DNA from: Candidatus Heimdallarchaeum aukensis
GTDB taxonomy: Archaea > Asgardarchaeota > Heimdallarchaeia > Heimdallarchaeales > Heimdallarchaeaceae
Assembly (NCBI GenBank): GCA_021513695.1
Contig: CP084166.1
Location: 1,728,001 to 1,792,000 of the forward strand
DNA length: 64,000 nucleotides
Direction: 5' to 3'
Position 1 is the stretch's first letter, and each line of letters opens with the position of its first letter. This document shows, piece by piece, positions 20,798-59,410 of this stretch. The notes under the pieces are model-generated. The model ran no database searches. It saw nothing but the letters and a program-made list of their open reading frames with translations, and was not told where the DNA came from. The position numbers were made by a program, and so were the translations under genes.

Positions 20798-21439
20798 ATG
20801 GGTGGAATTCGTAGACACAGAAAGAAGATTGTAACTCCTGGTCATCCTTATGACAGTGAGAGATTGATTAATGAGCTTGTATTTGTTGGAGAGTATGGTC
20901 TCAGGAATAAGAGAGAATTGTGGAAAGCCAGAACTATTCTTTCTACAGCTAGAGCTCAAGCTAGAAGGCTCTTAGCCCAACCAGCTGATATTCGAGAACA
21001 AAGAGAAAAAGAATTGCTTTCAAGATTAACTCGTTTAGGTTTACTCCCTCCAGGAGCAGATTTAGATACTGTTCTAGCTCTTGATGTTAGATCAGTACTT
21101 AATCGTCGGTTACAAACTATTGTATTTAACAAAGGTTTAGCTCGTTCACCTTATCAAGCGAGACAATTTGTTGTACATCGCCATATTGCTTTAAACGGTA
21201 GAGTAGTTACTTCTCCAGGAAGATTAATTACTGTTGAAGAAGAAGATTTAATATCTTATGCACCCCGTTCACCTCTCAACAAAGATGATCATCCAGCAAG
21301 ACCTCAAGCAACTCCAGCTTTTGAAGAAAAAGGTAAAACTAAACCTGGTAGGTCTAAAGACAATATAAAAAATAATGATGAAAGTGCAGGACCAGAAAAC
21401 GCTGAGGAAGTAGAAACTCTAGAAAAAATTGAAGGATAA
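20798..21439 (+). CDS. rps4: Ribosomal protein S4 (uS4) with ~40-aa C-terminal extension
   Basis: MGGIRRHRKKIVTPGHPYDSERL...; S4 domain FVVHRHIALNGRVV. Confidence 0.85.
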   Translation: MGGIRRHRKKIVTPGHPYDSERLINELVFVGEYGLRNKRELWKARTILSTARAQARRLLAQPADIREQREKELLSRLTRLGLLPPGADLDTVLALDVRSVLNRRLQTIVFNKGLARSPYQARQFVVHRHIALNGRVVTSPGRLITVEEEDLISYAPRSPLNKDDHPARPQATPAFEEKGKTKPGRSKDNIKNNDESAGPENAEEVETLEKIEG

Positions 21440-43748: not shown

Positions 43749-43859
43749 GCCAGGATACTCAAGCGGTAAGAGGTATGCCTGGAGAGTAATAATTCCAAGG
43801 TTTACCCATTAAGCATATGCCTTTATGGCTCCGGGGTTCAAATCCCCGTCCTGGCTCCA
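43749..43859 (+). tRNA. tRNA-Ser (anticodon GGA) with 27-nt intron in anticodon loop, long variable arm, encoded CCA
   Basis: Acceptor GCCAGGA/TCCTGGC (7 bp), T-arm CGGGG-TTCAAAT-CCCCG, anticodon stem TATGC/GCATA flanking CTGGAG[intron 43785-43811]A giving loop CUGGAGA, variable arm GCC-TTTAT-GGC; discriminator U then CCA. Confidence 0.6.
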
Positions 43860-53091: not shown

Positions 53092-53631
53092 TCATTCTGA
53101 AGATTCTTGCTCTGAATCTTCATCTTCTAGAGCTTCCTCAGGTTCTTCTTCAAAATCTTCTTCAAATTCGAATTCGTCTTCACCTAGTAACTCGTATTCT
53201 TCTACTTCTTCACCAAATTCAGCTACTTCAACGGCTTTAACTGGTAAATTAAGTACCTTTATGTGAAGATCTTCAGCTCGTTCAATTATTTGTTGTCTTT
53301 TTCTTAAACCGACTGTTCGTTGAATCATAACGGCATCTGTTTCTGGATCAAGTCCTTCTAATTGTGAAACATTGCTTACGTGTTTCACTGAATAACCTGA
53401 AGGATGCATACCACGAACTGCTTTAGGCCCTCTATAGCCAACGCCAGCCATTTTTGGATAACCTTTTATCTTTTTACGCATTTTGTTGTCGATACCCTTT
53501 GGACGACGCCAATTGCTCTTAAGACGTTTGTATCTCCAAGATTCTGGCCGAACGAAATTGGGCCTTCTTGCATTTATTTTTTGCTTTATACGCAATAACC
53601 GTAATCGTTCTTTATTTTCTGTCATCGTCAA
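53092..53631 (-). CDS. rpl32e: Ribosomal protein L32e with acidic C-terminal extension
   Basis: RPNFVRPESWRYKRLKSNWRRPKGIDNKMR core; ~45-aa tail EEYELLGEDEFEFEEDFEEEPEEALEDEDSEQESSE. Confidence 0.85.
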   Translation of the reverse strand: MTMTENKERLRLLRIKQKINARRPNFVRPESWRYKRLKSNWRRPKGIDNKMRKKIKGYPKMAGVGYRGPKAVRGMHPSGYSVKHVSNVSQLEGLDPETDAVMIQRTVGLRKRQQIIERAEDLHIKVLNLPVKAVEVAEFGEEVEEYELLGEDEFEFEEDFEEEPEEALEDEDSEQESSE

Positions 53632-55569: not shown

Positions 55570-56327
55570 TAGTTATCCACCTCCGGTAAACCAACATCTT
55601 GATCTGGAGTTTCTTTTCCAATAACGAAAATGTAACGATACAAAGTTTCAATAGTAGTTCCTGATGTTGTACGAATAGTAGCAGTTTTTGTTTTTGATGT
55701 TCCGTGAGTACTAATATTTTCTATTACTCCATGTTGACCCATACCACGACCACTAATTATTAATCCATAATTACCGACTTCTAAATCGAATTTGTCAATT
55801 ATTTTTTGTTCAGGTATAGATATTTTTACTGTTGCATGAGTTGAATATTCTGCAGCGATCTTATAGTCATCTTCTGAAAGGATAATATTTCTTCCATCAT
55901 GAAGATTTAATTGTGTTTTTCCTCCTTTTAATGTGGTCTTGTTAACAATTTGACAGAATTTTACCTTTGCCTTTTCTTCATCTATAGGTACAAGACGTAA
56001 ACCAATTTTTGGTATGTATAGCATCCTATAATGTTCATTTATTTTAGGTAAACTAAAAACATCCATAAAACCGACAGGATATTTTCGGTCAAGTTTTACA
56101 CGTCCATCAACGAGAACGTTACGTTCATAAATTATTTTTTTAACTTCACTGATGTTTCGAGCATATTTTAAGAGATCTCTTAAAATTATAGCTGTAGGAA
56201 TACAATCATCTGCAGCATGTGGTCCTGGAGATGGTCTAACTGAAAAGGTGTATTCTTTTTTGTGTATGGGGTAATGCTCAGAAACAACTAATCTTTTCAA
56301 GTGTTTTTTTCCGCCTGATTTTGTCAT
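55569..56327 (-). CDS. rps4e: Ribosomal protein S4e
   Basis: GGKKHLKRLVVSEHYPIHKKEY...; S4 and KOW domains. Confidence 0.9.
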   Translation of the reverse strand: MTKSGGKKHLKRLVVSEHYPIHKKEYTFSVRPSPGPHAADDCIPTAIILRDLLKYARNISEVKKIIYERNVLVDGRVKLDRKYPVGFMDVFSLPKINEHYRMLYIPKIGLRLVPIDEEKAKVKFCQIVNKTTLKGGKTQLNLHDGRNIILSEDDYKIAAEYSTHATVKISIPEQKIIDKFDLEVGNYGLIISGRGMGQHGVIENISTHGTSKTKTATIRTTSGTTIETLYRYIFVIGKETPDQDVGLPEVDN

Positions 56328-56839
56328 TATTCATTCTCCTCCTCTGTAGAATCTTCTTCAAAATCTTCTTCGAAATCTTCTTCGAAATCATAATCTTCGT
56401 CTAAGGTTTCTTCTACTTCTGTTTCTTCATCAAATATGCTTTCTTCTAAGTCTTCATCTGTTAGATCTTTCACAGAACGTCGTTTCAATAATTCTTTTCT
56501 CTTCTTATCCTTCAAATTCAGACTTGTAATAATGATATTTGAGGGTTTTACTGGAAAAGATTTTATTGTTCCGTCAGCTTTCTCTTTACTATGACCTTCA
56601 ATGTGAATTGCATATTTTTGAGGAAGACATCTGATAACTTTTCCTTTTATCTCATCTTCTTCTCTAATAGCTTTAACTACAACAACTTTATCTCCGCGAA
56701 CAACAGGAATTCTTTTTACTCCATATTTTTCTTGTAATTCTTTGGAGAGTCTTGCAGTCATGCCTTTTTTACGTTGGTGCAAAGGACGATTGAAATATCG
56801 TTTTCTTTGTTTCCCAGGTTTAATTGTCTTTGTTTTCAT
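56327..56839 (-). CDS. rpl24: Ribosomal protein L24 (uL24) with acidic C-terminal extension
   Basis: KOW VVRGDKVVVVKAIREEDEIKGKV; ~50-aa tail ...EDLEESIFDEETEVEETLDEDYDFEEDFEEDFEEDSTEEENE. Confidence 0.85.
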   Translation of the reverse strand: MKTKTIKPGKQRKRYFNRPLHQRKKGMTARLSKELQEKYGVKRIPVVRGDKVVVVKAIREEDEIKGKVIRCLPQKYAIHIEGHSKEKADGTIKSFPVKPSNIIITSLNLKDKKRKELLKRRSVKDLTDEDLEESIFDEETEVEETLDEDYDFEEDFEEDFEEDSTEEENE

Positions 56840-58426: not shown

Positions 58427-59410
58427 TTATTCATTATTTATTTTCTCGACATATTTTAGAATTGTTTTTCTAGTATCCCCTTCAACAAACTTGTGTATTT
58501 CTTCAGGAGTCATTTTTTCCATTAATACTTTTGCTTCCTTGACAGTATAGTCTTTTGATTTTTTGATGTCTTCAACTTCTACTTCCTCTTTCTTGATTTC
58601 ACCTTCAGTTTCGCTGATTTCGTCAAGTTCAGCCATTTCATCAATTTCACTGACTCCGGTTTCGTCAAGTTCAGCCATTTCATCTAACTCTTCAATTTCT
58701 TCTAATTCTTCAGAATATTCCTCGATTTCTGTCTCACCAGCAACTTCTTCTTCACCTATGGATACTTCTTTAGTATCTCTTGCAGTTGGTTCAGCAATTA
58801 TCTCAATATCATCGGGTAATATTGCATCTGGGCGCATAATTCTGACTTTCACACCGATTTTTCCTCTTCGGATAATAGCTGTAGCTTTTCCTTCATCAAC
58901 GAATTCAGTTGCTGGAGCACCACATTTAGCTACAAAACCCGCTCGAAAAGTTTCTACTCTAGCTCTTTGACTCGTAATTTTTCCGCTTATTATTACTTCA
59001 ACGCCCTTTGCTCCAGCACTTAATATTCTACGCATGATTCCGTGAGCAGAACGTCGAAAATGTCTCCCTCTCTCCAAAGAAGAGGCCAATCTATAAGCCA
59101 TGACTCTTGCGTCGAGATCAGGGTTTTCTACTTGTGATACTTCAATCTGAGGGTTATCTAACTTAAATTGTTCTCTTAATGTATTGGTGATTGATCTAAT
59201 GGTTTTTCCTCGACCACCAATTGCAAGTCCAACACGACCTGCTCTCAAAATGACCCTATCTCCCAAGGGAGTACGTCTAATTTCACACCCTCCATACTCT
59301 GCAGTCTTAAGCTTTTTAGCTAAATATTCATCAATAGCGTTTCTTTTAATTTTTCTTGCGATAAAATCCTTTGTTGCTGGCATAACTTCACCTATAATCT
59401 TAATCCTCAA
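58427..59410 (-). CDS. rps3: Ribosomal protein S3 (uS3) with ~100-aa acidic repeat-containing C-terminal extension
   Basis: KH domain GRVGLAIGGRGKTIRSI and uS3 C-domain; tail contains duplicated DEMAELDE(T/I) units encoded by 24-bp direct repeat. Confidence 0.9.
   Translation of the reverse strand: MRIKIIGEVMPATKDFIARKIKRNAIDEYLAKKLKTAEYGGCEIRRTPLGDRVILRAGRVGLAIGGRGKTIRSITNTLREQFKLDNPQIEVSQVENPDLDARVMAYRLASSLERGRHFRRSAHGIMRRILSAGAKGVEVIISGKITSQRARVETFRAGFVAKCGAPATEFVDEGKATAIIRRGKIGVKVRIMRPDAILPDDIEIIAEPTARDTKEVSIGEEEVAGETEIEEYSEELEEIEELDEMAELDETGVSEIDEMAELDEISETEGEIKKEEVEVEDIKKSKDYTVKEAKVLMEKMTPEEIHKFVEGDTRKTILKYVEKINNE
58619..58684. repeat. 24-bp direct repeat x2 (TTCGTCAAGTTCAGCCATTTCATC) within rps3 3' extension
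   Basis: Copies at 58619-58642 and 58661-58684 (spacing 42 bp, in frame); encode DEMAELDE on minus strand. Confidence 0.7.

Follow-up and report, generated by a model that had tools for sequence, protein, structure and literature searches.

Why should two unrelated proteins of one ribosome carry the same kind of acidic ending? The question is raised by a stretch of 64,000 nucleotides from the Asgard archaeon Candidatus Heimdallarchaeum aukensis (contig CP084166.1, positions 1,728,001 to 1,792,000 of the forward strand; the whole of it is called the window below), in which a ribosomal-protein operon of the typical archaeal spc/S10 type occupies ~50.3-59.9 kb on the minus strand. In this operon the ribosomal protein uL24 ends ...DEDYDFEEDFEEDFEEDSTEEENE and eL32 ends ...EDEFEFEEDFEEEPEEALEDEDSEQESSE. 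A first, sequence-only reading of the window proposed that one motif, encoded by short tandem nucleotide repeats, is appended to both proteins and may represent a lineage-specific decoration of the ribosome. The tails that it quoted agree exactly with the translations, FEEDFEE being present in both uL24 and eL32, and comparison across related genomes shows them to be, to all appearances, genuine, translated and clade-specific C-terminal extensions of ~45-70 residues on uL24 and eL32 of Heimdallarchaeaceae-type Asgard archaea. The elements concerned are the following.

56327..56839, minus strand: uL24 (L24P/L26) gene, an open reading frame (ORF) of 170 amino acids comprising a KOW-type core (residues 1-122) and an acidic tail
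56330..56473, minus strand: acidic/hydrophobic tail of uL24, residues 123-170, beyond all solved archaeal uL24
56350..56389, minus strand: 12-nucleotide tandem repeat encoding the (D)FEE units of the uL24 tail (Tandem Repeats Finder, TRF; 3.3 copies, 96% matches)
53092..53631, minus strand: eL32 gene, an ORF of 179 amino acids as listed
53095..53247, minus strand: acidic/hydrophobic tail of eL32, residues 129-179, beyond solved archaeal eL32
53185..53199, minus strand: E-Y-E-L-L, the invariant core of the eL32 tail (E[YF]ELL), from invariant alignment columns and 18 genome-derived tails
53119..53166, minus strand: 12-nucleotide and 24-nucleotide tandem repeats in the coding region of the eL32 tail (TRF)

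Both proteins are regular members of their families. uL24 contains the L24P/L26 core (Pfam PF16906 on residues 7-121, 1.9e-27), scores 103 bits against uL24 of T. kodakarensis, lies in the gene order uL14-uL24-eS4 and is 96% identical to a protein annotated as Heimdallarchaeaceae L24. eL32 contains the L32e domain (Pfam PF01655 on residues 24-128, 1.4e-40), scores 129 bits against Pyrococcus eL32 and has its gene between those of uL6 and eL19. The TTG listed as the start of eL32 probably lies two codons too far upstream, the true start probably being the ATG at 53625; a homologue with 93% identity (P0079) begins at this following ATG (MTENKERL...). Solved archaeal uL24 proteins (Thermococcus, Pyrococcus; 121 amino acids) stop at residue 122 of the window's protein with ~48 residues still to come, so that the interval 56327-56470, to which the sequence-only reading drew attention, is the uL24 tail plus stop codon. 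Solved archaeal eL32 proteins (125-130 amino acids) stop at residue 129, leaving ~50 residues beyond.

In both tails 50-60% of the residues are Asp or Glu and 22-29% are hydrophobic, and both are nearly free of Lys and Arg, giving net charges of -28 on a core of +24 for uL24 and of -25 on a core of +21 for eL32. AlphaFold2 models built with clade alignments are confident for both cores, and residues 135-170 of uL24 and 133-179 of eL32 have predicted local distance difference test (pLDDT) values below 50 and no secondary structure. An amphipathic helix or coiled coil was considered for the uL24 tail and rejected, as no helix is predicted past residue 132. Within the window (G+C content 32.6%) uL24 and eL32 are the only ORFs with more than 40% Asp/Glu over the last 30 residues, and a regular expression for acidic-hydrophobic patterns matched uL24 and uS3 only, with no match in non-ribosomal ORFs. 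An acidification of the proteome in the style of halophiles was dismissed, since the proteins of the window are not acidic in general.

How widespread are the tails and how do they change? In the nearest genome, the complete chromosome of Candidatus Heimdallarchaeum endolithica PR6 (CP084167.1; uL24 94% identical), both tails are present in the same frame, as they are in dozens of independent assemblies, and each differs from its counterpart in the window by exactly one 12-nucleotide unit, in frame. The uL24 tail of PR6 has one unit more than that of the window, and in eL32 the 12-nucleotide in-frame indel equals one EEPE unit. The tandem repeats themselves were recovered by TRF as proposed, with a 12-nucleotide unit in uL24, the consensus of which (AATCTTCTTCGA) is a rotation of the unit originally noticed (AAATCTTCTTCG), and 12- and 24-nucleotide units in eL32. 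Genome comparison shows the tails apparently lengthening and shortening through in-frame slippage of 12-nucleotide units while being kept by purifying selection.

Heimdall-labelled uL24 proteins all have 167-290 amino acids, most other archaeal matches having 116-140; one match of 164 amino acids (P0062) has a Glu/Lys-rich tail. With a core identity of at least 56% as threshold, the uL24 tail was found in 24 loci representing GTDB species, the founding AB_125 genome included, and the eL32 tail accompanies it in 18 of the 18 loci from which eL32 was recovered. Bathyarchaeia, Thermoproteota, Nitrososphaeria, Theionarchaea and Halobacteria are without these tails; the pattern used for the genome scan recovered loci from Heimdall, Bathyarchaeia, Thermoproteota, Nitrososphaeria and Halobacteria, and none of Loki-, Thor-, Hod- or Kari-type. 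When 13 proteins of the operon were compared between Heimdall and other archaeal loci, only uL24 (~48 residues), eL32 (~38 residues) and uS3 (~90 residues) were longer in Heimdall, the lengths of the remaining ten agreeing within ~6 residues. As these ten are unexpanded and the proteins of the window not acidic in general, a proteome-wide inflation of low-complexity sequence is not the cause.

Two observations touch the history of the eL32 tail. A divergent genome labelled Ca. Heimdallarchaeota (isolate b1.sp2_bin.26, L056) has a 42-residue acidic, Leu-rich eL32 tail (EEELELEFSEEELEALEELEALEE...) and a uL24 without tail, which suggests that the eL32 tail may be older than the uL24 tail within the wider Heimdall group. 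One eL32 from Odinarchaeota has a short tail only.

Are the tails constrained in sequence or only in composition? Conserved columns, defined over 18 aligned Heimdall species as those with a share of hydrophobic or of acidic residues of 90% or more, number 10 (hydrophobic) and 20 (acidic) in the eL32 tail and 9 and 21 in the uL24 tail. Mean pairwise identity is 0.59 in the tail and 0.81 in the core for eL32, and 0.43 and 0.76 for uL24. The ratio omega, taken as the median Nei-Gojobori dN/dS over usable pairs, is 0.14 in the tail and 0.11 in the core of eL32, and 0.27 and 0.08 in uL24; compared with PR6, the eL32 tail shows 11 synonymous and 2 non-synonymous differences. Given the near-equal omega values and the 11:2 ratio, the eL32 tail is constrained like a folded domain; the uL24 tail is constrained too, but more loosely. 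Both are acidic tails predicted to be disordered, with position-specific hydrophobic conservation under purifying selection, and to that extent the idea of a lineage-specific ribosome decoration is borne out, the tails being retained at conserved positions in all recovered Heimdallarchaeaceae-type genomes. The clade-wide pattern reads ...EEFGEVLE..LLEEEYELLDEDFELDEDFELDEDLE.DE..SS for the eL32 tail and S.KEITEEEL.EDIFDEDEEL.EELEDLDMLEDEDILEEDFEDLDMDELDE... for the uL24 tail. Since E[YF]ELL is invariant and the conserved columns extend across the clade, the F-E-E-D of the window is one local form of a wider grammar in which hydrophobic residues are interspersed among acidic ones. A reading of EEYELL as a known short linear motif was set aside: it fits the LC3-interacting region/Atg8-interacting motif (LIR/AIM), YxxPhi and acidic-dileucine patterns, all of which are prone to chance matches and have no established partners in Asgard archaea.

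Do the two tails descend from one module? Of 5000 composition-preserving shuffles, 55 reach a match like the shared heptapeptide FEEDFEE; aligned locally, the uL24 and eL32 tails score 4.7 standard deviations above shuffles, and in 12 of 18 genomes the similarity between the tails exceeds that of composition-matched shuffles (at most 1% of the shuffles reaching the observed score). A 20-nucleotide stretch of DNA is identical in both tails because of the strong codon bias (GAA 81%, GAT 75%, TTT 66%). A profile of the eL32 tail, searched with hmmsearch against 1.84 billion representative proteins, returned four matches, all of them eL32-type tails and none uL24. With no uL24 in the profile matches and similarity of short-range order only, a homologous module common to both tails was rejected, and so, after the four eL32-only matches, was a widespread motif family. 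A search of the 47-residue eL32 tail against an index of 5.8 billion proteins gave two candidates with shared words, none of them scored, and bears neither way. What was described as the same motif appended to two proteins cannot, then, be read as homology; we conclude that the tails are probably parallel acquisitions of one sequence grammar rather than copies of one module, common descent not being demonstrable. A candidate for a further carrier, one of the four profile matches, was likewise rejected: in P0210 (L065, ENA scaffold of 1354 bp, gene at 101-463) an eL32-type acidic tail is fused to an unrelated N-terminus of 70 residues, the gene sits directly upstream of eL19 and no eL32 core exists in any frame of the scaffold. 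This single short scaffold is most likely a chimeric metagenome assembly and, less probably, a real replacement.

The last residues of uL24 require separate treatment, as they overlap a signal for the next gene.

56325..56344, minus strand: Shine-Dalgarno sequence and overlapping stop/start for the downstream eS4, GAGGAGGAG (last Glu codons of uL24) followed by AAT GAA and TAATG, as read from the sequence

The stop codon of uL24 overlaps the start codon of eS4, as TAATG in the window and as ATGA elsewhere, and the upstream GGAGG is kept across loci; the arrangement (A/G)AGGAGGAATCA(G/T)(A/C)ATGA is present at 16 other Heimdall loci, its counterpart in the window being GAGGAGGAGAATGAATAATG. Many uL24 orthologues terminate in EESS or EESE regardless of the preceding residues. 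This conserved terminal EES[SE] reflects a dual-coding constraint, namely the Shine-Dalgarno GGAGG and the ATG of eS4, and not a protein motif: the constraint on the last uL24 residues acts on the DNA, in which eS4 has its ribosome-binding site and start codon. The practical lesson is that apparent conservation of the uL24 C-terminus is partly that of the next gene's ribosome-binding site. After eL32 a spacer of 30 nucleotides holds its own ribosome-binding site.

Which other ribosomal proteins are extended? The sequence-only reading also assigned acidic C-terminal extensions to uS3 and uS4 and held that archaeal ribosomal proteins normally lack such tails.

58427-58825, minus strand: C-terminal extension of uS3, residues ~196-327, past the Pfam domains (which end at residue 191)

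The uS3 extension does begin with a long acidic segment, rich in Glu, Ile and Leu, and continues with a further module of ~45 residues, DYTVKEAKVLMEKMTPEEIHKFVEGDTRKTILKYVEKI, that has no Pfam match; the net charge is +21 for the core and -32 for the tail. Other Heimdall uS3 proteins have long Lys-rich repeats (e.g. KPKKAPKKEEEA, several copies) in place of this module. Acidic uS3 tails are general in archaea, with 25-70 residues and ~120 in Halobacteria; the extension is a decoration related to, but distinct from, the uL24 and eL32 tails. In uS4 (20798-21439) an extension of ~30 residues is only mildly acidic and has no F/E motif. The statement on archaeal ribosomal proteins in general was too strong, given the general acidic uS3 tails and the charged eL32 C-terminal tails found in Bathyarchaeia and in other lineages besides. 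Bathyarchaeial eL32 proteins (P0127, P0128, P0130, P0150, P0177 and others) have 180-200 amino acids with a mixed Glu/Lys tail and a basic, KRKR-rich end, an elaboration of this terminus that arose independently and differs in charge. The extensions of archaeal uS3 (those of Halobacteria being very long) and of Bathyarchaeial eL32 resemble the tails described here in that the same termini of the same families gained charged low-complexity tails independently; they differ in lacking the E[YF]ELL and (D/E)F(D/E)(L/F) pattern, and those lineages have no uL24 tail.

The uL24 tail is strongly variable in length among lineages (48-143 residues), and some lineages add repeat families such as PKKETKV and KTPKAEAP. 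In sister Heimdall lineages (P0007, P0010, P0016, P0018, P0019; loci L002, L004, L014, L022, the gene starting at ~5001 in each locus) uL24 reaches 230-290 amino acids and consists of the KOW core, an acidic tail, Lys/Pro-rich tandem repeats (PKKETKV or similar) and a C-terminal double helix-hairpin-helix domain, (HhH)2 (Pfam HHH_5, 4e-14). A helix-hairpin-helix nucleic-acid-binding domain on a ribosomal protein of the exit tunnel is unusual, and no description of one was found. Elsewhere in the window, Rfam indicates a tRNA at 43749-43856 (plus strand, 44.5 bits), the 108 nucleotides of which imply an intron; ARAGORN finds no tRNA in the window.

What could the tails be doing? As the eL32 tail is constrained to the same degree as a folded domain, it very probably has a specific partner. 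The answer favoured here, though it falls short of being probable, is that the tails serve as flexible docking arms, both acidic and hydrophobic, on the side of the 50S subunit that bears the tunnel exit and faces the solvent. On this view they would project from that side, the few aromatic and aliphatic side chains would stay exposed thanks to the acidic residues, and 'fuzzy' multivalent binding would capture a partner whose surface combines a hydrophobic groove with a basic rim. The same grammar, Asp and Glu exposing Phe and Leu within a disordered, fuzzily binding segment, is found in the C-terminal tip of bacterial SSB and in acidic activation domains, which are unrelated proteins and offer an analogy of mechanism only. 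The poly-Glu tail that RimK adds to bS6, a protein of the bacterial small subunit, is likewise acidic but is attached after translation, comprises only a few residues and lacks hydrophobic positions. Candidate partners would be exit-site or membrane-associated factors such as a loop of SecY, the basic coiled coil of an Oxa1/DUF106-type insertase, the signal recognition particle (SRP) or its receptor, and the nascent polypeptide-associated complex (NAC).

The location of the two proteins is consistent with such a role. In the ribosomes of eukaryotes uL24 is found at the exit-tunnel rim, in contact with Sec61, with TMEM147 and with the coiled coil of TMCO1, which is basic, and cross-links join eL32 to the coiled coil of CCDC47, which is positively charged and has its end at the mouth of the tunnel (PMC7505659; PMC11186639); eL32 belongs to the equatorial belt of the solvent side (PMC5961077). 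Moreover, since sister lineages carry Lys/Pro repeats and an (HhH)2 domain at the end of the uL24 tail, this tail must be a solvent-exposed arm able to carry cargo. A known relative in spirit is the polyacidic tail of eukaryotic eL22, which is likewise on the large subunit, at the tunnel exit near rRNA helix 59 on the exit-tunnel/translocon face, and was suggested to interact with the basic residues next to signal sequences (PMC11186639); it differs in belonging to another, eukaryotic protein and in being short and purely acidic without conserved aromatic residues.

Several points weigh against docking arms. The binding partners named above are candidates only, and the positions of the C-termini are taken from papers on eukaryotic ribosomes and not from an archaeal ribosome. 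The eL32-tail profile found no other carrier family among the 1.84 billion representatives, so that nothing in this search points to a short linear motif of wide distribution. The uL24 tail (omega 0.27) varies more, in sequence as well as in length. Finally, the charge of each tail nearly cancels that of its core (+24/-28, +21/-25), which also fits a rival in which the tail serves its own protein.

In this rival, the tail would be a cis-acting charge neutraliser or 'built-in chaperone' that folds, ahead of assembly, onto the very basic surface with which its own protein binds RNA and is displaced by rRNA, thereby stopping aggregation and non-specific RNA binding, as a functional analogue of the acidic chaperones or escortins of eukaryotic ribosomal proteins. 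The near match of charges extends to uS3 (+21/-32), the total charge of eL32 stays near -5 +/- 3 over the 18 species, and the escortin Tsr2 employs acidic tails on eS26 (PMC6131548). However, other basic proteins of the operon, more basic ones among them, match other archaea in length and have no tail (eL19 +31, uL15 +28, uL18 +23, uL14 +19), and charge shielding alone needs neither position-specific Phe, Leu and Tyr nor an invariant E[YF]ELL. The uL24 tails, in addition, exceed the charge of the core, by -13 on average, and in the AlphaFold2 models the tail is not docked on the core. We consider this explanation unlikely, though serious.

A comparably small chance is given to a largely neutral expansion, in which GAA/GAT-rich sequence of an AT-rich genome slips at tolerant, exposed C-termini and the product acts at most as an entropic bristle or negative brush. 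Several observations fit: 12-nucleotide tandem repeats, indels of repeat units among close relatives, a G+C content of 34-36% at all loci, a uL24 tail ranging from 48 to 143 residues with other repeat families added, and termini that tolerate additions, as the different charged eL32 and uS3 tails grown by other archaea indicate. Slippage without selection would, however, hardly produce the conserved hydrophobic columns, an eL32 tail with an omega close to that of its core and the 11 synonymous against 2 non-synonymous differences from PR6, nor would it retain the tails in every genome of the clade and leave ten other proteins of the operon unexpanded.

That the tails resemble acidic stalk-protein C-termini, as the sequence-only reading suggested, does not withstand inspection. 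As extra P-stalk C-terminal peptides they would recruit translational GTPases (the stalk peptide binds aEF1A, aEF2 and aIF5B), and P-stalk tails (archaeal aP1/uL10, eukaryotic P1/P2) are indeed disordered, acidic, factor-capturing flexible arms of the large subunit in which a few hydrophobic residues bind. The likeness is one of general look, an acidic, disordered, Phe/Leu-containing tail on a large-subunit protein. The stalk peptide of aP1 acts through Leu103, Leu106, Phe107 and the terminal carboxylate, Leu106-Phe107 being strictly conserved at the C-terminus, and P-stalk tails have a terminal helix with Leu-Phe-Gly/Asp and an Ala/Gly/Pro hinge, and are multicopy at the GTPase centre (PMC4267659). 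Neither tail described here has a terminal Leu-x-x-Leu-Phe(-Gly/Asp): hydrophobic residues are missing from the last 8-10 positions (DSTEEENE and DSEQESSE), orthologues end in EESS, EESE or DDSS, the hydrophobic residues are internal, and the terminal residues of uL24 are dictated by the ribosome-binding site of eS4. The carriers, moreover, are not of uL10/P1 type at the GTPase-associated centre; they are encoded by single genes of the operon and belong to the exit/solvent side, uL24 lying at the tunnel exit, away from the GTPase centre (PMC5961077). A stalk-like function is thus extremely improbable and essentially excluded. Essentially excluded too, with still slighter chances, is that the tails are an artefact (frameshift, assembly error or mis-called stop) or the by-product of selection on the mRNA, e.g. 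for a purine-rich unstructured leader, as the extreme 3' end of uL24, which does hold the Shine-Dalgarno sequence and start codon of eS4, is set against tails in the same frame in CP084167.1, close relatives and dozens of independent assemblies, repeats varying in in-frame steps of 12 nucleotides, an excess of synonymous over non-synonymous changes, no Rfam family in the region and the spacer that separates eL32 from the next gene.

Could docking arms be part of something larger? In a bolder version, the uS3 extension and the sister lineages' uL24 with its (HhH)2 domain would join the two tails in a Heimdallarchaeaceae-specific docking platform around the tunnel exit that tethers ribosomes to a membrane-insertion or targeting factor via acidic/aromatic motifs. 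We regard this as quite improbable; if true, the platform would be an independent archaeal route to a eukaryote-like elaboration of the ribosome surface for co-translational targeting.

Acidic tails of ribosomal proteins as such are already known; the novelty lies in a conserved acidic-plus-aromatic pattern that uL24 and eL32 carry in this clade, and literature searches returned no description of these tails. Extensions of ribosomal proteins are one hallmark by which the ribosomes of eukaryotes differ from those of prokaryotes, and few known archaea are more closely related to eukaryotes than Heimdallarchaeia. Here two ribosomal proteins of one Asgard family, or three with uS3, have long, selected, disordered extensions that are absent from eukaryotes, human uL24 and eL32 being without such tails. 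As the extensions are not shared with eukaryotes, elaboration of the ribosome surface proceeds independently in this lineage. Identifying a partner of the eL32 tail would bring to light a layer of translation, targeting or assembly peculiar to this lineage, in organisms whose cultivation is just becoming feasible.

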